From a virus, in the IMG/VR virus record IMGVR_UViG_3300037467_001254, positions 1-43,320 of that record: a stretch of DNA of 43,320 bases. One strand, 5' to 3'. The notes beneath the pieces are model-generated. The model saw only the letters and a program-made list of their open reading frames with translations, searched no databases and had not been told where the DNA came from. Below, piece by piece: positions 2,754-26,861 of the stretch (positions are counted from its first letter, which is position 1; each line of letters starts with the position of its first letter). A program made the position numbers and the translations under genes.

Positions 2754-2862
2754 CGTGTGTCTGGTGTGGAAGCCGATCACCTATTCGGCGTCCCAAGACT
2801 CGGCACAGACGGTTTCGGAAGTGCGGCAGGCGAACGCCAGCCGTGCGGCATACTGCAAGTAG
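2659..2862 (+). CDS. o-spanin candidate, outer-membrane lipoprotein (67 aa)
   Basis: Signal peptide with lipobox LLSGC. The gene starts inside 2514..2753 and extends past it (overlapped spanin architecture). Small Cys-containing mature part. Confidence 0.65.
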   Translation: MPMKSIASSALLALLLSGCSTTRTTATTGQPDVCLVWKPITYSASQDSAQTVSEVRQANASRAAYCK

Positions 2863-2886
2863 CATCCAGAAAGGGCGGCAGGGGAC

Positions 2887-3261
2887 ATGCGCGAGGATAA
2901 TCAGATGGCCGCACCGGCTTGGAAGTGGGAATGGAACCTCAACACCCTAGTCGTCTTGATAGGCTTTGCGAGCGGCTTCGTGGCGTGGGGCTACACGCTG
3001 GCCGACATCAAGGCGGGGCGAACCACAAACCAGGAGAATATCGCCGTCCTCACCACGCGCGTTGCCGCGAATGAAACAACACTTCGCCGGATCGACAACC
3101 ACGAACTGCGCATCACGAACATGGAAAAGGCGGCAACAGACGCCGCTGACACGATGAAATCGCTCGACAAGACGCTGAATGACTTGGCGTCGGATATGCG
3201 GGTGACGAAGGAAATCTTGCAGCGCATCGAGGCGGCTCAGAAGGTGAGATTTCAGCCATGA
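2887..3261 (+). CDS. Membrane-anchored coiled-coil protein, function unknown
   Basis: 124 aa. One TM helix LNTLVVLIGFASGFVAWGY, then a heptad-rich helical region. Alternative start at 2905. Confidence 0.6.
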   Translation: MREDNQMAAPAWKWEWNLNTLVVLIGFASGFVAWGYTLADIKAGRTTNQENIAVLTTRVAANETTLRRIDNHELRITNMEKAATDAADTMKSLDKTLNDLASDMRVTKEILQRIEAAQKVRFQP

Positions 3262-3536
3262 GGCGGCCCCAAATCCCTGTCGATCCTTTCGACGGCCTCG
3301 AACCAAGCATCCTCGGCCATACGCGCCGCCGTGTTCTTGTCGGGCGCTGATCCCGTGGCAGTCATGCCTCGGTTTCGGTAAAAGCCGTTGGCCGTCCAGA
3401 ACCAGTGCTCCGGGTTATTCCAGGTCGCGACCACATGGTAGATGCGCGTGGCCAGTTCTCCATCAGGCGTCCTGCCGACGAAATCCGGCCCTTTATCGGG
3501 CCATGTATGAGACCATGTGAGGCGTAGCCGTTTCAT
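3252..3536 (-). CDS. Hypothetical protein (94 aa), last gene of att-proximal moron
   Basis: ATGA-coupled to the upstream 33-aa ORF. Trp-rich. Loosely resembles the 3668..3862 product (W..G.G.T...A...A..W). Confidence 0.6.
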   Translation of the reverse strand: MKRLRLTWSHTWPDKGPDFVGRTPDGELATRIYHVVATWNNPEHWFWTANGFYRNRGMTATGSAPDKNTAARMAEDAWFEAVERIDRDLGPPHG

Positions 3537-3667: not shown

Positions 3668-3862
3668 TCAGGGCGTAAGCGCATCCGCCTTTTTCTTTTC
3701 GTAAGCGGCCCAATGCATCGCAGCGTTCAGTAAAGCCTCCTGTGGGGTTTTGCCTATCCCGTGGTGATCGGTGCCACTGGCGGCCCAAATATCCGCTTGC
3801 CATGGCGTTGGGTCTTTGTCACCGCGATTGCGATGAAAGATTCTTACTTCGTTTTCGCCCAT
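3668..3862 (-). CDS. Hypothetical protein (64 aa)
   Basis: AGGAGA SD within the repeated 21-nt leader. No recognised domain. Confidence 0.6.
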   Translation of the reverse strand: MGENEVRIFHRNRGDKDPTPWQADIWAASGTDHHGIGKTPQEALLNAAMHWAAYEKKKADALTP

Positions 3863-4384: not shown

Positions 4385-5482
4385 TCATTTCAACACCTTA
4401 TGCGCAGCTTCTTCACCAGTCCACGCATTCTCCACACTTTTTGCCTTTTTCATCTGCCGCAAAGTTGGCAGCAAATCGGCCCGTTTCGATTCTTCCGATG
4501 CGACCACATGCTCGTATCTGGCGGCCGATTTCTGATCCCTCCACCGTCCAGTTCCAACCAGGCCGCGAGTGTCCAGCTTGCCATACCGACGCATCCACGT
4601 TGCCCACGTGTGGCAGTAGATGTGGAAGGTGACGAAATCCACGTCGGGTCCGGCTTTCTTCTTCACCTTTCCCATGAGCGTGTAGAGCCGACCGCACTTT
4701 CTGAACCGGAATACCTTCTGCTTTCCACGGTTCAGCCCGCGCGGATGGTTCGCCAACTCTGCCACCGCGTCAGGCGGCAGGTAGACGCCTCGCGGATCGT
4801 CATTTTTCGTTTTCGGGAAATAGGCGAATGCCTCGTTGATCATCAGCTTGTCGCACGTCAGCGCCAGCGCCTCGTTCAGCCGGCACCCCGTGTAGAGAAG
4901 AAAGGTGAGGAAAATGGCGAATTCCCTGTCAATCTCGCAAGCGGCTTCCCACATTCGGTAAGCTTGTCCTGGCTGCATCCAGTCTACGCGGGATTTCCCA
5001 CGCCATCCCTTCGGCCTCCTGATTTTGAAATCCACGCCAGCGTGCTTAAGGACCGACGATATCGGCGTGTAGACATGACGGTTGCGCGTCATGGGGGACG
5101 CGTTCGGATAAAGCGACACCGCCGTCCTGTCGATTTCCTGCTGGTCGATCTCCGATAACAGCTTGTCTCCCAACAGGGAGATGGGGCCGCCGTTCCATCG
5201 CTTCTTCTCGTCATCCCACGTGCCGAGATACCGGGCGTCACCGCCACTCTCCAGATAAGCGACGGCCGCCTCGACGAAAGTGGGGCCCGCCGGCTTCTCT
5301 GCTGCTACTAGCGCGGCAACGCGACCACGTTCGATATCTCGGCGCTTCGCTGCAAGGATTTGCTTGGCGAGTGCTTCGACAGCAGTTCCCGTGCTCTCGT
5401 CCACGCGGACTCCAAGGTACGTTCCTCGGATCGTCCAGTTGGGCGATTTGCCCTTGCGCGGCGGCTTGAGTTGGATCGACAT
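4385..5482 (-). CDS. int: Tyrosine integrase (365 aa)
   Basis: GGGAGG SD 7 nt upstream. Catalytic positions are R201 (TGCRLNE), H287, W314 and Y323 (ARYEHV) with Cre-like spacing. Cys290 sits where Arg-II is expected. Confidence 0.85.
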   Translation of the reverse strand: MSIQLKPPRKGKSPNWTIRGTYLGVRVDESTGTAVEALAKQILAAKRRDIERGRVAALVAAEKPAGPTFVEAAVAYLESGGDARYLGTWDDEKKRWNGGPISLLGDKLLSEIDQQEIDRTAVSLYPNASPMTRNRHVYTPISSVLKHAGVDFKIRRPKGWRGKSRVDWMQPGQAYRMWEAACEIDREFAIFLTFLLYTGCRLNEALALTCDKLMINEAFAYFPKTKNDDPRGVYLPPDAVAELANHPRGLNRGKQKVFRFRKCGRLYTLMGKVKKKAGPDVDFVTFHIYCHTWATWMRRYGKLDTRGLVGTGRWRDQKSAARYEHVVASEESKRADLLPTLRQMKKAKSVENAWTGEEAAHKVLK

Positions 5483-7377: not shown

Positions 7378-7788
7378 CTATTCCTTTCCTGCGAGGGCGG
7401 AATCAAAGGCATTCAATTCCGAAACAGTGCTGGAATACGCCTGCCCGTTGAGGTGATAGGTCACTGCCCGCACTTGGTTCGCGAACGCCAAACCACGCTC
7501 CCGCAGCCGCGCATTGTCAGCCGCGAGGCGCTTAATCTGCTGGTCCTGTGTTTCCACGATCAGCATAGCCTCGCCAGCTTCGACCTTGGCGCTTTGCAAG
7601 CCAGCCGCGAGGCTGTCGCGCTCAGCTTCGGCGGCTTTAGCCTGGTCTTGCCACATGCAGGCCAGTTTGAAAGAGTCGTGGCCGACCTCCCGCGCCTCGG
7701 CCAGCTGGCGCTTGAGGTCGGCATTCTCGCGTTCGATCTCGCCGCGTCTTTTGGGAGGCGAAAGCCAACCAGTCGGTTCCTCAACCAT
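7378..7788 (-). CDS. Coiled-coil protein (136 aa)
   Basis: Long heptad-like charged region ENADLKRQLAEARE...QQIKRLAADNARLRE. Confidence 0.6.
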   Translation of the reverse strand: MVEEPTGWLSPPKRRGEIERENADLKRQLAEAREVGHDSFKLACMWQDQAKAAEAERDSLAAGLQSAKVEAGEAMLIVETQDQQIKRLAADNARLRERGLAFANQVRAVTYHLNGQAYSSTVSELNAFDSALAGKE

Positions 7789-8020
7789 TCTTCCGGCCCT
7801 CCTTTGCAGGCAGTTCGCGGTGGAAATTTAGGTTGAAATCCAGCGCTGCCAGGTAAGGAGATTTGCCGAAGCCCGCTACGCCGTCCTGCAAATTGTCACC
7901 GACTAGCCAGCAATACTGATCACCGTCCACCGTCAGCTTTGCCCCGAAAATGATAACTAGGTTCATTTCGGCCGTTTGGATGATCCGCGCTTCGTCTACG
8001 TTCTGGACATAGGGCTGCAT
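7781..8020 (-). CDS. Hypothetical protein (79 aa)
   Basis: Operon context. Confidence 0.55.
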   Translation of the reverse strand: MQPYVQNVDEARIIQTAEMNLVIIFGAKLTVDGDQYCWLVGDNLQDGVAGFGKSPYLAALDFNLNFHRELPAKEGRKNG

Positions 8021-8021
8021 G

Positions 8022-8801
8022 TTACCGGCCCTCCTGTTCGAGGGCGGCGTCGATACCGGCGAGGGTAGCCTGTGCTATTGCGTCGTCAGGTCCGGTCAGG
8101 GCTTTAAGCAGCACCTTGGCGTTGTGCATCGCCTCCACCACCCGCTCATCGGCGGGATGGGGGTGGGAGAGGACGGAGAGGATGCGCGAAAAGGCGGCAC
8201 ATTCAGTTGGATCGTAGTCAGTCCAACCGGCATCACCAGCCGCTGATACGTAGCCAGCGCTGAATGCATGTTTCAGCAGGTTGGACAAGTCCAGCGGCTT
8301 CACCTTCACCGCCTGCCCTCCTGCGCCTATGGTGAGGGCTGTCACGTCAACGAGCTTAATGACGTTCTTGGCGTACGATGGCGGCGTTGACCAATGATAC
8401 GCCACAGATCGCGCCGTATCGCCTCCGGGCAATTCCTCCTCCCACATATAGGCAAGGACTGGAATGCCGTTGACGGTTTCGCCGCTTAGGGTTCGCTCCG
8501 TCACCTGCGGCGGATTGGCGGGCTGCGGGGAGGCGGGCGCAAGGTCATTCAGAACGGCAAGCACATCCTCGGGGCCGTATTCGTTTCCGGCATCCAGTAG
8601 GTCGAATTTGACCATCCACGAGAGCACAGCGTCGGCAATCCGCTCCGCCACCGGCTCGCCTGCTTGCGGCTGCGCGCTCTGTGTGGAGAGGGATTCGATG
8701 GCGTCTACTGCGCGATCCATCCATTTTCTGGCGAGGTTCGGCGTCCCTTTCGGATCGATCGACTTGCGTTCGGCTACCAGCGCCTTGTGTTCGGGGGTCA
8801 T
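8022..8801 (-). CDS. Hypothetical protein (259 aa)
   Basis: Long ORF coupled to its neighbours. No recognised domain. Confidence 0.65.
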   Translation of the reverse strand: MTPEHKALVAERKSIDPKGTPNLARKWMDRAVDAIESLSTQSAQPQAGEPVAERIADAVLSWMVKFDLLDAGNEYGPEDVLAVLNDLAPASPQPANPPQVTERTLSGETVNGIPVLAYMWEEELPGGDTARSVAYHWSTPPSYAKNVIKLVDVTALTIGAGGQAVKVKPLDLSNLLKHAFSAGYVSAAGDAGWTDYDPTECAAFSRILSVLSHPHPADERVVEAMHNAKVLLKALTGPDDAIAQATLAGIDAALEQEGR

Positions 8802-14580: not shown

Positions 14581-15285
14581 TCAAGCTGCTCCACCCATTA
14601 CAACGAAGTGCACCGAGTGCACATTCTCATGAGGGAACGTCAATCTCTTGGGTGGGTTGTACTGCTCAAGCACAAGTTCCTCGGCGTTGTGCCGAACGAA
14701 CCTCTTTATGTAAGCTAGGCGAGTATCGCTCTCGTCCATGATGATTTGGGCGACCACGAAGTCCCCCTTTGTCACGCGCCTGGTTGGGTCTACAAAAACG
14801 ACCTCGCCGTCAAAATAGCGAGGCTCCATCGACTCGCCGGACACCTGCACTGCGTACGCTCCGGAAACTGGCGATAGCGAAGGTGGAGCCATCACCTCAT
14901 ACAGTATACTACCGTTCAACACGAATTCCCCGTCTATGCCGCCTACAGCGCTACCATACACAGGGATCATGTTTCCGCTAGTAACAATTGGTGAGCCGAC
15001 TATCGCGTTCGGGGCTGGTGGAGCAAAATTGAATTCTGGACCTGCCAGTTCCCAAATTTCTGGGCGCGAAATCGGCGGGCTTCCTTTCCCTAGCAGAGCC
15101 TTCTCGATCTTCGTCACGAAATCCCTCTTAAGGTACCCTGCCTTCAGTTTGTCGGGGTCAAAATAACGCTGAATGCTGGATGCGTCCGCGTAGCCCATGG
15201 CACGCGCCATGTCCGCCATGGTCAGCCCAGATCGTTCACGCAAACTGCGCATGCGACCGGCGATTGATTCCGGTGAATTATCCAT
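14581..15285 (-). CDS. cI: CI-type repressor: N-terminal XRE HTH plus C-terminal S24 (LexA-like) peptidase
   Basis: HTH region RMRSLRERSGLTMADMARAMGY. Peptidase motifs GESMEP and AYIKRF. Start placed at MDNSPES because the longer ORF (to 15402) would cover the operators and the cro start. No SD is present, so the mRNA is near-leaderless. Confidence 0.85.
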   Translation of the reverse strand: MDNSPESIAGRMRSLRERSGLTMADMARAMGYADASSIQRYFDPDKLKAGYLKRDFVTKIEKALLGKGSPPISRPEIWELAGPEFNFAPPAPNAIVGSPIVTSGNMIPVYGSAVGGIDGEFVLNGSILYEVMAPPSLSPVSGAYAVQVSGESMEPRYFDGEVVFVDPTRRVTKGDFVVAQIIMDESDTRLAYIKRFVRHNAEELVLEQYNPPKRLTFPHENVHSVHFVVMGGAA

Positions 15286-15323
15286 GTGGCGCACAAGACC
15301 ATCTGTCACGTACGTTTTCCACG

Positions 15324-15353
15324 TTGACAAGCAATACGCATAATGCGTATAAC
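15324..15353 (+). promoter_or_regulatory. Rightward early promoter (PR-like) with palindromic operator
   Basis: TTGACA (15324..15329)-17 nt-GTATAA. A perfect 17-bp palindrome ATACGCATAATGCGTAT sits at 15334..15350. A degenerate site is at 15310..15326. A divergent TTGCTTGT -35-like element (minus strand, 15327..15334) is shared with PL. Confidence 0.65.
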
Positions 15354-15383
15354 GAGAGAAAGAGAGATTACCGGAAGACCCAA

Positions 15384-15623
15384 ATGCTTGTTTCTCCAGC
15401 ACACTATGTCATCGGAAAGCTTGGCGGACTTACCAAGACCGCTACCGCGCTCGGGATACCGGTAACGACAGTCCAGGGATGGAAGGATCGCAACCGCATC
15501 CCACAAGACCACTGGCAGAAATTGATCTCAGCGGCGAAGGGTGAAGGCTTCACTATCGTGCTGGCGGACTTCCTGCGCGACCATGAACTCGACGCCCCCT
15601 CCCGACAGGAGGAAGGCGTATGA
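15384..15623 (+). CDS. cro: Cro-like HTH regulator (YdaS-like, 79 aa)
   Basis: GKLGGLTKTATALGIPVTTVQGWKDRNRIP. First gene downstream of PR and divergent from cI. Confidence 0.75.
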   Translation: MLVSPAHYVIGKLGGLTKTATALGIPVTTVQGWKDRNRIPQDHWQKLISAAKGEGFTIVLADFLRDHELDAPSRQEEGV

Positions 15624-21871: not shown

Positions 21872-22144
21872 ATGACCCCCATCCCCGACGAGATAATGGA
21901 ACAGGCGAGGGAAGCTTGGAGCAATGCGTTCCACGTCGGTCCCGAAATCGAAACCATAGCCACCGCCCTTCTCGCCGCAGAAAAGCGCGGAGAGGAAAGG
22001 GAGATGGAGCGGTGCGCGAAAGTGGCCGCTGGGAACTCGGCGGATTTCGATTTCCAGAAGGCGTTGGCTGAATGCCGCGACAGTGAGCACGGCTTTCATT
22101 CGGGCCGGCTCCATGCCGCCGCCGCCATCCGCAGCGGAAAATGA
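21872..22144 (+). CDS. Hypothetical protein (90 aa)
   Basis: Start at MTPIPDE, just after the upstream stop. Confidence 0.6.
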   Translation: MTPIPDEIMEQAREAWSNAFHVGPEIETIATALLAAEKRGEEREMERCAKVAAGNSADFDFQKALAECRDSEHGFHSGRLHAAAAIRSGK

Positions 22145-22151
22145 GGACGGG

Positions 22152-22253
22152 ATGATGACGAGCGAGCACAAGGTTTGGGCGATTTTCTGGATATCCATGT
22201 TCGCGGCTTTGGCTGTCGGAAACATGGGCTGCATCGCCTTTTGCGGCAACTAA
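22152..22253 (+). CDS. Small membrane protein (33 aa), below the ORF-track cutoff
   Basis: Sequence MMTSEHKVWAIFWISMFAALAVGNMGCIAFCGN. Confidence 0.4.
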   Translation: MMTSEHKVWAIFWISMFAALAVGNMGCIAFCGN

Positions 22254-22349
22254 GGCAGGCAACGAGGTTTCGATCCTCGCCCGAGAAATTGGGCGACAGC
22301 GGCAGTCTAAATCACCCGGAGACATTTGCAATATGAAGCGAGGGCACGC

Positions 22350-23027
22350 ATGACCTGGTACGCGGTGAGGACGCTCCCCGGCGCGCAACAGCCAAAGCGC
22401 GAATACTGGACGGAAACCGAGAACGAGGACGGACGGCCTGTCGGCGGCAAGAAGGGCTATCGTGTCGTTTCCGGTGTGGCGTCCGATCACTCAGCGGTCG
22501 AGTTGGCTCTGGCCGACGCCGGCTTCACCTATTTCATGCCGGCCGAATTCGTCGCGGTTCGCAAGCGCCAGAAGGCAGGCATGTATGAGTTGCGCCGCTT
22601 CGCCTTGCTCAAGGGCTACATGTTCGTGGACGTTGCCGACGAGGACTGGCTGCGTCTCTATGATGTCCCGGGAATTCGTGGCGTGGTCAAAAACTGCGGC
22701 AAGCCGTTCGCGATCAGCACCTTGGACCTGTTCCGGCTGCGCATGTACGAGCAGAACAACCGGGCGGTAGCGCAAGCCAAGGTAGACAGCCTCTCCAAGG
22801 CGGGCGAGCGCATCGAGCGCGAAAAGCGCAAGGGCGTCATTAAGGGCGCTCGCAAGAAGCTATTCCCTGGCCGAGACGTGAAGTTGATATGGGGCGACAA
22901 GGCCGGTCACGACGCGACAGTGCAGGCTTGGGAAGATCAGGATCAGGTGCGAGTCTTGCTCAGCAGCCTCGAAGCGGCGACGGAGACGATCACCGTTCCG
23001 TTTGAGTTTTTGAAGGCCGCATCTTGA
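22350..23027 (+). CDS. NusG/RfaH-like (NGN + KOW-like) putative late-gene antiterminator
   Basis: The WYAVRTLPGAQ N-terminus is typical of NGN domains. KOW-like C-terminus GRDVKLIWGDKAGHDATV. Located immediately upstream of the late promoter/terminator. Confidence 0.7.
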   Translation: MTWYAVRTLPGAQQPKREYWTETENEDGRPVGGKKGYRVVSGVASDHSAVELALADAGFTYFMPAEFVAVRKRQKAGMYELRRFALLKGYMFVDVADEDWLRLYDVPGIRGVVKNCGKPFAISTLDLFRLRMYEQNNRAVAQAKVDSLSKAGERIEREKRKGVIKGARKKLFPGRDVKLIWGDKAGHDATVQAWEDQDQVRVLLSSLEAATETITVPFEFLKAAS

Positions 23028-23051
23028 CATTAGACGCTTCGCGTCTAAAAT
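23024..23051 (+). promoter_or_regulatory. Candidate late promoter (PR'-like) with a palindrome in the spacer
   Basis: TTGACA (23024..23029)-16 nt-TAAAAT (23046..23051). The spacer is the perfect 8-bp-arm palindrome TTAGACGC-TTC-GCGTCTAA (23030..23048). Confidence 0.5.
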
Positions 23052-23140
23052 TGTGGTCCTGAGATACGAGCGACGGGGCCAGAGGCCCGGCTTGATGCCA
23101 TAATCTCAAATGGCGTCGGGCGAAGCTGTGCCTGGTGGTT

Positions 23141-23166
23141 GGCTGCTTCGGCGGCCTTTTCGATTC
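23141..23166 (+). terminator. Intrinsic terminator about 90 nt downstream of the late promoter (tR'-like)
   Basis: GGCTGC-TTCG-GCGGCC (one G-U pair, UUCG loop) followed by TTTTCGATTC. Confidence 0.6.
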
Positions 23167-23191
23167 AGTTTCCGCGAGAGCGGATAGAGTT

Positions 23192-23250
23192 GGGACGGCG
23201 CGAGAGGGTTACCGGCGGCTGACCGCTAGGCACCAAACCGCTCCCGTCCC
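23192..23250. other. 59-nt extended hairpin in an ORF-free region
   Basis: GGGACGG/CCGTCCC closes further helices (about 20 bp in total by manual pairing) capped by CTGA. Not tRNA-like, as there is no T loop. Confidence 0.4.
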
Positions 23251-23288
23251 ATTCATTCGCCGTCCATGACGGCAACACCAATGCGAGA

Positions 23289-23471
23289 CTAGTCCGGCCA
23301 AGGCTGAATGCCGCGAGCAATGGCAGCGCAAGCTAGGGCGATGTAGAGTGGGATAGGCTGTCCTTCCTCATAGCGTTGTGGTTGGTTTCGCCCAAGACCA
23401 AGAACCTCAGCCGCTTGGGTGCGGTTGAGGCCAAGGCGATTGCGCCATGCGATAAAGTCGTCGGCGGTCAT
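23289..23471 (-). CDS. Small XRE-like HTH protein (60 aa), last gene of the counter-oriented cassette
   Basis: WRNRLGLNRTQAAEVLGLGRNQPQRYEEGQPIPLYIALACA. About 60% identical to the C-terminus of the 24094..24603 product. TAATG overlap upstream. Confidence 0.7.
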   Translation of the reverse strand: MTADDFIAWRNRLGLNRTQAAEVLGLGRNQPQRYEEGQPIPLYIALACAAIARGIQPWPD

Positions 23472-23710
23472 TAATATCCTACGTAGTCTCTGTCAGCCCA
23501 ATCGATCGCTACCCCAGGCATCCTGGCGCGGCTGTCATCAGTCCAGTTGCAGTACCCGCCGCGCTCAAGATCGTCCTCGTAGTTTTCGAAGGCCTTGTTG
23601 ACTTCCTCGACCTTATCGAGCGGGACGCGGAAATAGACGATATCGTTGGCAAAGCCGCGAGGGGAAACCTTAAAATAGCGGACCTTGCTGCGGCTTGGAT
23701 GATTTGTCAT
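23471..23710 (-). CDS. Hypothetical protein (79 aa)
   Basis: Strong AGGAGG SD. No recognised domain. Confidence 0.65.
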   Translation of the reverse strand: MTNHPSRSKVRYFKVSPRGFANDIVYFRVPLDKVEEVNKAFENYEDDLERGGYCNWTDDSRARMPGVAIDWADRDYVGY

Positions 23711-23723
23711 TTTATCCTCCTGA

Positions 23724-23996
23724 TCAAAAAGGTGAGCCGCCGCGCGAATTGCGCAGGCCTACATGCTCGGCAAAGGCGCGGGCGTTGCGGATGAAATCGG
23801 ACGGGAAGTTCCCCTTGTCGCCCTGGAATTCCCAGCCGGTCTGCGCGTCGTAGTAGACCTTGAGATTGCGGCACCCGGCGAAGGAGCGATCAGCGCCGGC
23901 GAAGTTGATGTAGACGCGACGATCATTCCAGACCGAGGCCCTAAAGACGCCCTCGAACTTCTCGGCTTCGGTCTTGATTTCGGTGAGGGTGGTCAT
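23724..23996 (-). CDS. Hypothetical protein (90 aa)
   Basis: Operon context. No recognised domain. Confidence 0.65.
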   Translation of the reverse strand: MTTLTEIKTEAEKFEGVFRASVWNDRRVYINFAGADRSFAGCRNLKVYYDAQTGWEFQGDKGNFPSDFIRNARAFAEHVGLRNSRGGSPF

Positions 23997-24093
23997 TTTC
24001 GGTACTCAGCCCCTGAAAGCCCGAGGCGCGGTATCAACGTCTTGTTGATGACCGTTTATCGCACAATGCACCAATTAGTGCAAGCCTTTTTTG

Positions 24094-24603
24094 TCAGCAT
24101 GTGGAGTTTTTTAAGAAAAAGCTGGCCATCGCCATAGCAACATACTTTGGGATTGGCTGCCCATCTTCGTAACGCTGCGGTTGATTCCGGCCCATCCCAA
24201 GCTCTTCTGCGGCGCCTATCCTGCTCAAACCCAAAGACGCTCTCCATTGTCTGAACAAGTCGGGATCGCAGTCTCCCATTATGAGTCGTGAAACTTCTGC
24301 TTCCGGTAAGGGGTCGGGTATCTTCTTTCTCGGTGCCAGGGTCTCGATTTCAGCGTCCATATCCTTGAGGGCGCTTTTTATGTCGGCGATGGGTAAGTCG
24401 AACCATTCACCAGAAAGAGAAAATTCCCGAAAGGATCTGTGGAGCGCTCTTTCATAGCGCGGAGCACAATCGTCTTTTACGAGTAGTAGGCAACTTAGAA
24501 CCGTCGGGTTGCCAGTCTGCAGTTGCTTTAACCGTTGGTACGGCGCGGCAGAAACGCCAATTTTGTACGGCCCATTTTCCCCTCCTATGACATATAAATA
24601 CAT
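24094..24603 (-). CDS. T5orf172 (GIY-YIG superfamily) domain fused to a C-terminal XRE-like HTH (169 aa)
   Basis: GGAGG SD 8 nt upstream of the ATG at 24603. MYLYVIGGENGPYKIGVSAAPYQRLKQLQTGNP...ERALHRSF...GEWFDL. C-terminal GRNQPQRYEDGQPIP HTH. The ORF-track start at 24702 is unlikely. Confidence 0.7.
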   Translation of the reverse strand: MYLYVIGGENGPYKIGVSAAPYQRLKQLQTGNPTVLSCLLLVKDDCAPRYERALHRSFREFSLSGEWFDLPIADIKSALKDMDAEIETLAPRKKIPDPLPEAEVSRLIMGDCDPDLFRQWRASLGLSRIGAAEELGMGRNQPQRYEDGQPIPKYVAMAMASFFLKNSTC

Positions 24604-24726
24604 TCGTATACCTCCAATCCTCTGCATTAAACAGTGCATAATATACTGGAAAATAACCCAGAATATAACCCCAATTGGTGAAAACAATGTGCTGCGGCGC
24701 ACAATCGCCTAACCCAAGAGGTTCCC

Positions 24727-24924
24727 ATGGCTGAGCGAGAGTATGTCCGGGTGCATCGTCTCGGTGACATAGACGAGAACGTTGACGGGGAGAACTATCT
24801 GGCCCGCACGGTCTACGAGGATCGCGAGTTGATCGACATCGGCATCGTGGACGCCAACGGCGAGAAGATCATGGCGCGGCAAAAGATGGACGCTATTGGT
24901 TTTGTCCGGTGGCACCATGGCTAA
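24727..24924 (+). CDS. Hypothetical protein (65 aa), first plus-strand gene before the terminase
   Basis: Acidic small protein, divergent from the cassette. Confidence 0.55.
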   Translation: MAEREYVRVHRLGDIDENVDGENYLARTVYEDRELIDIGIVDANGEKIMARQKMDAIGFVRWHHG

Positions 24925-25096
24925 GCCAGAAGCCGCAGCAATCGAATTTCATCCGTCCCGCCTTTTCAAGGTGAAGCGGCAGTAGCCTTGCATAGCGATC
25001 CATGAGCGGTCCGGGACGGGCTGCGAAAGCGGTTTGGCATGGGGCCAATGGATCGCGAGCCGCAATATTCTCGGCAACAATCCGAAAGGAATTGCC

Positions 25097-25333
25097 ATGG
25101 CACGAGGTGTACGCCTCAACCCTGCTCACGATGAGCGCACTCGAGCAAAAATCCAGACCAGTCAGATCATCAACCGTTTGGAGAAGTTGGTGAAAGGCGA
25201 GATCGACATGTCGCCGCAGCAGGTCAATGCCGCAAATATTCTGCTGCGCAAGACATTGCCCGACCTTTCCGCGGTGACCATGGATGCGACAGTGGCGATT
25301 TCCCATGAGGACGCGCTAGGTGAGCTTGAATGA
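25097..25333 (+). CDS. Terminase small subunit candidate (78 aa)
   Basis: AAAGGAA SD. KIQTSQIINRLEKLVKGEIDMSPQQVNAANILLRKTLPDL pattern. Overlaps the TerL start. Confidence 0.5.
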   Translation: MARGVRLNPAHDERTRAKIQTSQIINRLEKLVKGEIDMSPQQVNAANILLRKTLPDLSAVTMDATVAISHEDALGELE

Positions 25334-26861
25334 TCGTGAGCGCGCGATCCGCCAGCGTCTCAAGAGCGACTTTTCGCACTATGCCGAGAAATGCCTGCGC
25401 ATCCGCGCCAAAGATGGCACGATAGCGCCGCTCAGCCTGAATGAGGCACAAATCTACCTGCACTCGCGCCTTGAAGCGCAGAAAGCAGAAACCGGAAAGG
25501 TTCGCGCCCTTGTCCTTAAGGGGCGGCAGCAGGGCATATCAACCTATGTCGGCGGGCGTTTCTATCACCGCGTCACACATAATCGCGGCCTCCGTTGCTT
25601 TATCCTTACTCATGAACAGGACGCCACGAACAACTTGTTCGGGATGGTGGATCGCTATCACCAGCATTGCCCCGCGCTTGTGAAGCCATCGACCGGTGCT
25701 GCAAACGCCAAGGAGTTGTACTTCGACCGGCTCGAAAGCGGCTATGCGGTTGGTACTGCGGGGGCGAAGGCAACAGGCCGATCACAGACGGTGCAACTGT
25801 TCCACGGCTCGGAGGTCGCGTTTTGGCCGAATGCGCCGACGCATTTCGCTGGTGTTGTGCAAGCTATCCCGGATTTGCCTGGCACGGAGATCATTCTGGA
25901 GAGCACCGCAAACGGCATGGGCGGTGAGTTTCATGAGCGCTGGCAACAGGCAGAGCAGGGGGTAGGCGACTATCAGGCCATCTTCATCCCGTGGTTCTGG
26001 CAGCCGGAATATCGACGCGCCGCACCGGCTGGCTTTGAGATGGACGAGGAAGAAAACGCCTACATGGATGCGCATCGTCTCGACATTGAGCAAATCGTCT
26101 GGCGGCGAAACAAGATTGCCGAACTGAAAGACCCGATGCTGTTCAAGCAGGAATATCCGGCAACAGCGGCCGAGGCTTTCCAAATGACGGGCCATGATAG
26201 CTTTATCCCGGCCGAGCGGGTGTTGAAAGCCCGCAAGGCTGAGGTCGAAGCATCGGGACCGTTGGTCATTGGATATGATCCGGCGTGGAAGGGGGCAGAC
26301 AGACATTCCATGGCATTCCGGCGCGGTCGGAAAGTCGAGAAGGTCGAGAGCCGACACAAGCTCGACACGATGGCTGGGGCGGGCTGGGCCAAGCAGGTTA
26401 TCGACGCCGAGAAGCCGGCGCGCATGTTCATCGACGTGGGCGGCGTTGGTGCTGGCGTTTATGACCGGCTGGTTGAGATGGGATACGGCGAGATTGTCCG
26501 GGCCATCAACTTCGGCTCAGCACCGCTGGAGCCTCAACCGCTCGATGAGATGGGTAGGCCGAAAGGCGGGTATGCCAATCGGCGCGCCGAAATGTGGGGC
26601 AAGTCCAAAGACTGGCTCGATGAGCCGGGTGGCGTGAGCATCCCGGACTCTGACGCTCTACAGGTCGATGCCTGCGCTCCGGGCTACAAATACGACAGCC
26701 TAAGCCGCGTGGTGCTCGAAAGCAAAGACGATATTCGCAAACGCGGCCTGCGCTCCCCTGACGAATGGGACGCGGTTGCCCTGACCTTTGCCGAGCCGGT
26801 GCATGAAGCGCGGCCAAGGCCAAAGCCGGTCGCGTACGGCGCAGGAAGCTGGATGGGTTGA
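25320..26861 (+). CDS. terL: Terminase large subunit
   Basis: 513 aa. GTG start. Walker A-like LKGRQQGIST. Located upstream of the portal gene. Confidence 0.85.
   Translation: MSLNDRERAIRQRLKSDFSHYAEKCLRIRAKDGTIAPLSLNEAQIYLHSRLEAQKAETGKVRALVLKGRQQGISTYVGGRFYHRVTHNRGLRCFILTHEQDATNNLFGMVDRYHQHCPALVKPSTGAANAKELYFDRLESGYAVGTAGAKATGRSQTVQLFHGSEVAFWPNAPTHFAGVVQAIPDLPGTEIILESTANGMGGEFHERWQQAEQGVGDYQAIFIPWFWQPEYRRAAPAGFEMDEEENAYMDAHRLDIEQIVWRRNKIAELKDPMLFKQEYPATAAEAFQMTGHDSFIPAERVLKARKAEVEASGPLVIGYDPAWKGADRHSMAFRRGRKVEKVESRHKLDTMAGAGWAKQVIDAEKPARMFIDVGGVGAGVYDRLVEMGYGEIVRAINFGSAPLEPQPLDEMGRPKGGYANRRAEMWGKSKDWLDEPGGVSIPDSDALQVDACAPGYKYDSLSRVVLESKDDIRKRGLRSPDEWDAVALTFAEPVHEARPRPKPVAYGAGSWMG

Follow-up and report, generated by a model that had tools for sequence, protein, structure and literature searches.

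The window analyzed here, that is, the whole 43,320-nt stretch of IMG/VR record IMGVR_UViG_3300037467_001254, comes from a temperate phage, with genes for an integrase (4385-5482) and a CI-like S24 repressor (14581-15402), and carries a cassette of four minus-strand genes, denoted g1 to g4, in counter-orientation between the gene for a NusG-like antiterminator and the packaging genes. These genes encode a fusion of a T5orf172-type nuclease domain with a helix-turn-helix (HTH) domain (g1), two orphan proteins (g2 and g3), and a stand-alone HTH protein (g4). An earlier reading of the sequence alone (hereafter, the sequence-only reading) regarded the four genes as one self-contained nuclease-HTH plus HTH-only module. 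The open reading frames (ORFs), their compact, counter-oriented placement between the NusG-like late regulator, with its promoter and terminator, and the terminase genes, the GGAGG and AGGAGG ribosome-binding sites that precede g1 and g3, respectively, and the TAATG overlap between g3 and g4 are all as described in that reading, the successive intergenic gaps being 97, 13, and -1 nt. Comparison of the window with homologous contigs and loci (denoted L, with a number) points to a different organization, in which the four genes appear to be two adjacent accessory units rather than one conserved system. The features of the cassette are the following.

24094..24603, minus strand: g1, 169 amino acids (aa) from the ATG; the longest ORF opens at a GTG at 24702
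~24355-24603, minus strand: nuclease domain of g1, T5orf172/MUG113 (GIY-YIG superfamily) by Pfam, followed by a linker
~24118-24273, minus strand: C-terminal HTH of g1, Xre/MqsA/Aca2 class, with profile matches to NE0471, Aca2, and MqsA
24604..24726, minus strand: AT-rich control region of g1 (G+C 0.44), divergent from the 65-aa late gene at 24727
24671-24680, minus strand: operator-like palindrome CACCAATTGG in the g1 control region
24623-24638, minus strand: operator-like palindrome TGCACTGTTTAATGCA in the g1 control region, with one mismatch to TGCAC-N6-GTGCA
24055..24083, minus strand: promoter of the cargo operon, TTGCAC-17-GATAAA (-35 box at 24083-24078, -10 box at 24060-24055)
24067-24082, minus strand: operator, the perfect palindrome TGCACTAATTGGTGCA of the form TGCAC-N6-GTGCA, overlapping the -35 box and the spacer
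23997..24054, minus strand: leader, between the -10 box and the start of g2
24049-24044 / 24038-24033, minus strand: leader hairpin ATCAAC/GTTGAT
24021-24031, minus strand: invariant CCGCGCCTCGG of the leader, followed by TCAGGGGCTGAG and the g2 start codon
23724..23996, minus strand: g2, orphan cargo protein, 90 aa, pI 8.9
23471..23710, minus strand: g3, 79 aa, pI 5.3, with the motifs RYFKVSPRGFANE and PGVAxDWADR
23289..23471, minus strand: g4, stand-alone HTH protein of 60 aa, its start overlapping the g3 stop in TAATG

All four genes are found in this order in only one other phage (L002-L005/L039), where the identity to the window counterparts is 94% for TerL, 90% for g2, 90% for g3, and 83% for g4, but only 65% for g1. 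At the other loci, the parts of the cassette come in different combinations, as listed below.

L013/14: g2, g3, an extra 136-aa gene, a g4 ortholog (72%), and a 189-aa gene
L015/16: g2, a 127-aa gene, and an unrelated 80-aa HTH
L017-19, Kaistia contigs: g2, g3, and an unrelated 70-aa HTH
L008-10: a 101-aa gene, g3, and another HTH
L011/L012/L020, Camelimonas fluminis prophage, 7645-8451: g3 and an unrelated HTH, counter-oriented between a NusG-like gene and the packaging genes
L006, L025, L027, L029: g3 without a downstream HTH
L065, L066, L068, L091 (IMG/VR): one or two quite different small genes, then a g4-type HTH

Thus, g2 is encountered without g3 (L015, L051/52) and g3 without g2 (L008, L011, L006); g4-type cassettes with unrelated cargo lack g1 in L013/14, L036, L065, L066, L068, and L091, and g1-type fusions accompany other cargo in L050 and L171. 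The g3 gene is mostly, albeit not always, followed by a small HTH gene, the sequence of which varies. Because the parts occur independently, a single four-gene module is not supported, and the self-contained unit proposed in the sequence-only reading gives way in this synteny survey. The cassettes are located in alphaproteobacterial prophages at the prophage ends, after the lysis genes, or between the antiterminator and terminase genes, and the Camelimonas fluminis case suggests that the latter position is an accessory hotspot in an unrelated phage as well. Among ~40 TerL relatives (56-94% identity, each covered for 1.6 kb or more upstream), the g1-g4 block is present only in L039; because nearly all close relatives lack it, the cassette appears to be accessory rather than core.

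The component that ties the cassettes to their promoters seems to be the HTH protein. The matches of g4 to the HTH families of Pfam (MqsA, HTH_31) have E-values of 1e-4 to 1e-3, below the cut-offs, and its closest named matches are MqsA (Pfam, 2.8e-4; TIGR03830, 4.6e-6; PDB 3fmy) and HigA2. A profile of the stand-alone g4 proteins retrieves the HTH of NE0471 (2auw, 1e-8) and MqsA (1e-3), with Aca2 not listed at E-values up to 0.1, whereas the profile of the fusion family matches NE0471 and MqsA and, at 8e-6 to 1e-3, chains of Aca2. The C-terminal dimerization domain of the Aca2 type, which belongs to proteins of ~115-125 aa, is not found in g4, where ~10 of the 60 residues follow the HTH fold. 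In every cassette that encodes a g4-type HTH (RN[QM]P[QE]RYE), the palindrome TGCA[CT]-N6-GTGCA is present no more than ~70 nt upstream of the first gene, sometimes twice (window, L003, L013/14, L036, L050, L065, L066, L068, L091, and L171). Where the HTH is of another type, the equivalent promoter position is occupied by a different palindrome.

L017: TATAGCCAACAGCTATA
L015: ATACAGGCCAGGCCTGTAT
L037: GGTGTAATTTACAC
L011/L044: AGGTCCATTAGACCT
L008: TAGGCCATTTTGGCCTA
L042: TACGCGCATTGCGCGTA

The HTH type and the operator palindrome change together across ~20 cassettes, and because they always co-vary, we infer that g4 is very probably the autorepressor of the cassette, acting at the promoter palindrome. 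Another motif, GATTGTGCK, occurs at chance level and was dropped. On the plus strand, the operator hairpin together with a T-run scores as terminator-like.

The description of g1 as a T5orf172-type domain fused to a C-terminal HTH in the sequence-only reading is borne out by matches above the Pfam cut-offs, to MUG113 (PF13455; E-value 1.2e-12, 48.6 bits against a cut-off of 22.3), which assigns g1 to this family, and to T5orf172 (PF10544; 6.1e-8, 33.5 bits against a cut-off of 20, residues 2-82); g1 also matches phrog_8130 (3.7e-17), and the HTH_31 match of its C-terminus falls below the Pfam cut-off. In the PADLOC scan, g1 is matched by PDC-S57, but weakly (E-value 1.2e-5) and at the domain level only, with residues 13-93 aligned to positions 20-104 of the 212-position model, so that the match covers the nuclease domain and does not make g1 a member of PDC-S57. 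Residues Y4, K14, G16, R24, E51, H55, and E66 are invariant in all 13 fusion proteins compared, which are 29-64% identical, and so are the stretches K14-I-G16 and G65-E66-W67. This pattern suggests that g1 keeps the GIY-YIG-type catalytic Arg and Glu. Judging by motif position, the Glu of the GEWF motif would correspond to the one on which Odn and I-TevI depend (PMC8263062); for Odn (Gp88) of vibriophage ICP1, the dependence of cleavage on Glu was shown with the E180A mutant (PMC8263062).

The recognition helix of g1, RNQPQRYE, is identical to that of g4, and the two HTH domains are 64.6% identical over 48 aa, close to the ~60% given in the sequence-only reading. The estimate of ~44% G+C for the AT-rich 5' end of the cassette in that reading was similarly accurate: the G+C content of 24541..24720 is 0.444, compared with 0.595 for the whole window. 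The g1 gene itself has a G+C content of 0.504 and a GC3 of 0.53, both halves being uniformly low, and the values for g2, g4, the NusG-like gene, and TerL are 0.59-0.61. A recent local duplication of g4 as the source of the g1 HTH can be ruled out, given the lack of nucleotide similarity and the uniformly low G+C content of g1. Because the helix is identical to that of g4, yet the coding DNA is dissimilar and both halves of g1 are equally low in G+C, the fusion appears to have arrived as a unit and to be held to the g4 specificity by selection.

Proteins of this kind are rare. Only 3 homologs more than 50% identical to g1 are found in 5.8 billion proteins, and the exact g1 protein is on record in a single 2-kb contig; the T5orf172 domain as such is common (7,515 representatives in an exhaustive search), and ~11 of the best 150 matches are full-length proteins of 155-220 aa that combine T5orf172 with a C-terminal Xre-HTH. 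The sequence-only reading had considered the prospect that the homologs are mainly isolated, homing-endonuclease-like genes; this is true of the T5orf172 domain generally but not of the fusion clade, the conserved partner of which seems to be a DNA site, the operator, rather than g2 or g3. Four independent fusion lineages are all associated with TGCAC-N6-GTGCA operators, with different cargo each time.

Lineage 1: window and L001
Lineage 2: L002-5, g1 counterpart 65% identical
Lineage 3: L050, 56% identical; followed by the operator, a 66-aa acidic protein, and a g4-type HTH
Lineage 4: L171 3700-4534, 43% identical; last gene of an operon with two exact operators and a 61-aa gene at its head

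Upstream of the g1 orthologs in L003 and L050, the alignment reveals TCACC(A/G)AT(T/C)GGTG and a TGCAC palindrome at the same positions as in the window. The shared recognition helix suggests that the g1 nuclease is probably aimed at the binding sites of the cassette repressor. In the window, L002-5, and L171, the gene and the packaging genes are divergently oriented; in L171, the operon is divergent from the genes for TerS, TerL, and an SU10-type portal, and the contig ends 28 nt past the fusion. Two hallmarks of homing endonucleases are apparent in g1, patchy presence beside conserved or essential genes and, by sequence, a nuclease domain joined to a separate DNA-binding domain. No exact empty-site allele was recovered, the g4-type cassettes without g1 (L013/14, L036, L065-68, and L091) being embedded in other genomic contexts. 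In L116 (TerL 89% identical), a different T5orf172 ORF of 157 aa, without a C-terminal HTH, lies upstream of TerS on the plus strand (2825-3298), co-oriented with the late genes, and looks like an independent arrival at the locus.

The leader that separates the -10 box from g2 is common to 16 distinct cassettes (window, L003, L006, L008, L011, L014, L017, L024, L034, L036, L037, L040, L042, L044, and, twice, L052), with the consensus CATCAAC-N3-5-GTTGAT-N1-2-CCGCGCCTCGGG(G)..CAGGGGCTGGAG..ATG or, in a short form, CATCAAC..GTTGAT..CCGCGCCTCGGGG..CAGGGGCTGGAG, directly 3' of the -10 box. The cassettes that carry it are diverse: their cargo, HTH type, and operator vary, as does even the G+C content of the host. 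The leader is not an artifact of the DNA search because it is also present in every locus fetched by protein homology to g2 or g3; it is absent from the g4-type cassettes with other cargo (L050, L065-68, L091, and L171). None of the Rfam families matches the leader, and its covariation, assessed with RNAalifold and by pair counting, is not significant, being no better than in controls; most of the hairpin is invariant, and a single compensatory change, from an AU to a GC pair, is seen in three sequences. A leader peptide in the 5' untranslated region (UTR) can be ruled out, the frame not being conserved between the window and L014. This HTH-independent leader could be a new cis-regulatory signal common to these cassettes. 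L052 contains two tandem operons with identical promoter, palindrome, and leader (1895-1958 and 3690-3753), the second of which opens with a g2 homolog.

The two cargo proteins match nothing recognizable, as the sequence-only reading had it: neither g2 nor g3 belongs to a Pfam, NCBIfam, or PADLOC family or has a PDB sequence match by profile, and in PHROGs there is no match for g3 and only a weak one for g2 (phrog_16984, E-value 0.003). The 21 homologs of g2 are 59-89% identical to it, and none is annotated; g3 has 38 homologs, and no protein on record is identical to it. Relatives of g3 account for 3 matches among 185,579 reference species, so this family is nearly confined to phage contexts. 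AlphaFold2 (AF2) models with pLDDT of 84.6 for g2 (helix, two strands, helix, two strands, helix) and 83.7 for g3 yielded no significant Foldseek match, with best E-values of 0.11 (PDB) for g2 and 0.21 (PDB) and 0.11 (BFVD) for g3; the top PDB match of g3, AcrIC9 (E-value 0.21, TM 0.43), was discounted as evidence of a relationship. The cargo of the other cassettes includes 10 proteins without a Pfam family, several of them strongly acidic. L050 encodes a 66-aa acidic cargo protein (1087-1287), a homolog of which is naturally fused to g3 in the 137-aa protein P0030; this suggests that both cargo proteins act together or on one target. Otherwise unrelated cargo proteins of cassettes with the leader, namely g3 (23710-23690), the L034 protein 1124-1384, and the product of the first gene after the leader in L040, have the N-terminal motif M-(T/S/V)-N-H-P-(N/S/R)-R in common.

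In its overall layout, the g2-g4 unit resembles acr-aca operons, which are located in prophages, on one strand, with short or overlapping gaps and products of less than 200 aa (PMC9765179). The short-gene-operon definition of AcaFinder (one strand, gaps below 250 bp, proteins below 200 aa, HTH protein below 150 aa; PMC9765179) applies to the four genes together, with their gaps of 97, 13, and -1 nt and products of 169, 90, 79, and 60 aa. The resemblance extends to the order of genes, with variable orphan genes first and a small HTH gene last, to the inverted repeat over the promoter and the conserved 5' UTR, and to an operator type that also fronts a neighboring unit (PMC9765179, PMC9410881, PMC13551039). 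Aca proteins repress via promoter inverted repeats, and neighboring operons are also among their predicted targets (PMC13551039); the HTH class of g4 is related to Aca2 (8e-6 to 5e-5), NE0471 (1e-8), and MqsA, and NE0471 and Aca2 are among the closest structural neighbors of the 65-aa Aca10 (PMC9410881). Unlike in acr-aca operons, searches of Pfam, PHROGs, NCBIfam, PDB, and BFVD identify no homolog of a known Acr or anti-defense protein among the cargo, g4 fits no named Aca family, and the leader is not tied to the HTH type.

A close parallel to g1 is Odn, which joins a T5orf172 nuclease to a DNA-binding domain homologous to a protein of another element, RepA of PLE, much as the HTH of g1 is homologous to g4, and thereby directs the nuclease to the sites of that protein, with the catalytic Glu kept (PMC8263062), as it appears to be in g1. 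The two differ in that the DNA-binding domain of Odn is N-terminal, of the RepA_N type, and targets the replication origin of a satellite, whereas that of g1 is C-terminal, of the Xre type, and its matching sites are promoter operators of a cassette of the phage itself. The genes for T5orf172 homing endonucleases cluster near those for terminases, lie at recombination boundaries, and exchange their DNA-binding domains (PMC10448857). With those of ICP1 and T5-like phages, g1 shares the terminal nuclease, the modular DNA-binding domain, the terminase neighbors, the patchy distribution, and the foreign composition, but they mostly contain CapR, DUF723, or DUF4397 zinc-finger domains, whereas g1 has an Xre HTH and is much smaller (169 aa) (PMC10448857). 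Acr-Aca fusions (AcrIIA1, AcrIIA13/15, AcrIF24) likewise combine an effector and an operator-binding HTH in one protein, which can thus both exert the effect and regulate its own operon (PMC9410881), and the arrangement in L171 can be compared with them; the effector of these fusions, however, is a Cas-binding inhibitor whereas that of g1 is of the nuclease type, and the window encodes a separate g4 in addition. I-TevI, the paradigm of GIY-YIG enzymes, has the same layout of GIY-YIG domain, linker, and HTH as g1; I-TevI is both a nuclease and an autorepressor that acts via an operator in its own promoter.

The explanation we favor, and to which we give about an even chance of being right, is that the window contains two adjacent accessory units on one operator type, the acr-aca-like g2-g4 operon and a separately acquired, operator-directed nuclease, g1. 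In the first unit, g4 would bind the palindrome, presumably as a dimer, and shut down the operon after a burst of expression, and the cargo genes would be interchangeable payloads that, going by the architecture, most likely encode anti-defense or inter-element conflict factors. In the second, the low-G+C g1 gene would be directed to TGCAC-N6-GTGCA sites because its recognition helix is identical to that of g4, and the operator-type sites in its promoter would provide for autoregulation and cross-regulation with g4. Most likely, g1 would also cut DNA beside operators of this type in g1-less genomes or alleles, which we think likely because the catalytic Arg and Glu are conserved, and it would act as a free-standing homing endonuclease or, like Odn, as an inter-phage weapon. 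A bolder version of this explanation, tentative and on the unlikely side in our judgment, is that g1 represents a new class of phage nucleases in which an Aca-type HTH selects the target and cleavage occurs beside the operators of widespread, autoregulated anti-defense-like cassettes, so that g1 homes into, or kills, competitors with the same cassette, with operator occupancy by g4 or g1 serving both self-protection and autoregulation.

Several observations weigh against the two-unit explanation. The operators of the phage itself call for self-protection against a g1 that cuts, and this is left unexplained. The window contains 2 TGCAC-N6-GTGCA sites with at most one mismatch, which is the chance expectation, so that the weight would lie on the positions of the sites in the two promoter regions and on their conservation in orthologous loci, not on their number. 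The L171 fusion holds the terminal 'Aca' slot of its operon, which suits a pure regulator equally well. Compared with L002/L003, nucleotide identity is 74-79% around g1 and 84-86% in the TerL and portal genes, with unalignable gaps, and the drop near g1 is thus only modest. The leader does not co-vary with the HTH type, which the model does not explain, and g2 and g3 bear no likeness to a known Acr or anti-defense protein in Pfam, PHROGs, NCBIfam, PDB sequences, or Foldseek searches of PDB and BFVD.

The alternative most directly suggested by the local gene order is that g1-g4 make up one dedicated system, for exclusion or abortive infection or as an antirepressor switch. The genes are adjacent and co-oriented, their order is kept in L002/L003, both promoters have the same operator type, and there is the weak PDC-S57 match (1.2e-5), but that match is limited to the nuclease domain, the components are combined freely across more than 20 loci, the composition of g1 is unlike that of g2-g4, and the whole block is missing from nearly all close terminase relatives, which makes such a system very improbable. 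Of the roles put forward in the sequence-only reading (exclusion, anti-defense, or antirepression), a conflict or accessory role is plausible, whereas the joint action of all four genes is not supported. We rate just as low a toxin-first type II toxin-antitoxin system of the MqsRA or HigBA kind, formed by g3-g4 or g2-g3-g4 with g4 as the antitoxin. It would account for a small-protein gene followed by an overlapping gene for an HTH of the MqsA/HigA2 class, the nearest named matches of g4, and for a palindromic operator that hints at autoregulation. These matches, however, are all below the curated cut-offs and confined to the HTH, g4 at 60 aa has no additional toxin-binding domain, the acidic g3 (pI 5.3) does not resemble RelE, MqsR, or HigB in sequence or fold and g2 matches no toxin family or fold, and the partners are not obligately linked: g3 has no following HTH in L006, L025, L027, and L029 and is followed by unrelated HTHs elsewhere, in a family that, as indicated above, is almost absent from the reference species.

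A different possibility concerns g1 alone, which could be a domesticated, non-cutting DNA-binding protein, that is, a second repressor or an anti-repressor. CapR of PLE, a T5orf172-derived repressor, is a precedent (PMC10448857); the helix shared with g4, the operators in the g1 promoter, and the position of the L171 fusion at the end of an operator-controlled operon all fit such a role. The invariance of R24, E66, and the other residues across fusions that are only 29-64% identical argues for a kept enzymatic function, however, and a selfish gene, or one on the move in recent times, would have the patchy distribution and foreign composition seen for g1, so we consider a non-cutting g1 unlikely. 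Hardly probable at all, in our view, is an ordinary early or lysogeny-control unit, such as a Cro-like switch, unrelated to defense or conflict. Small HTH genes and palindromic operators are indeed common in phage regulatory regions, and the cargo proteins have no assigned function, but this phage already has its CI-like S24 repressor and integrase, the position of the cassette varies among prophages, and nearly all close relatives do without it.

If the two-unit explanation is correct, the cassettes form an acr-aca-like family in alphaproteobacterial prophages, a group with few known anti-defense genes, and the combination of a g4-type HTH, the TGCAC-N6-GTGCA operator, and the leader would provide a guilt-by-association handle, with g2, g3, and at least 10 other orphans as candidates. 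Moreover, g1 would be the second independent case, after Odn of ICP1, of a T5orf172 nuclease with a regulator-type DNA-binding domain, the sites in this case being promoter operators, which would tie homing-endonuclease biology to the regulation of anti-defense loci. The invariant leader may then act as a novel signal in regulation, independently of the cassette repressor.

The region around the cassette contains a putative late control point and the packaging genes, with the features given below; a blastn search with 22000-26000 produced no match in 50,697 phage records.

22326..23027, plus strand: NusG-like antiterminator gene (Pfam NusG, 6.8e-8; phrog_25909, 1.6e-25)
23024..23051, plus strand: near-consensus late promoter TTGACA-16-TAAAAT, right after the NusG-like gene
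23141..23156, plus strand: intrinsic terminator, ~90 nt past the late promoter
24727 / 25034 / 25320, plus strand: starts of the packaging genes
24727, plus strand: start of the 65-aa late gene, divergent from g1
25320..26861, plus strand: gene for a protein the counterpart of which adjoins the P22-type portal in relatives

The promoter and terminator at 23024-23156 resemble a late control point in the style of lambda pR'/tR', with a NusG paralog as the antiterminator, and the cassette would be crossed in antisense by late transcripts bound for 24727 and onward. At the Camelimonas fluminis locus, the pair of g3 and the unrelated HTH adjoins a gene that encodes an Acb2/Tad1 hairpin domain (PF24729), of a family known as anti-defense sponges, and that is followed by TerS. 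Two segments of the window, 24604-24759 (between g1 and the 65-aa late gene) and 24913-25297 (most of the 99-aa gene upstream of TerL), are unalignable to L002/L003 at the nucleotide level, and L003 contains ~280 nt of extra sequence between the 65-aa gene and g1, so that a mosaic junction between the window and L002/L003 adjoins the nuclease gene.

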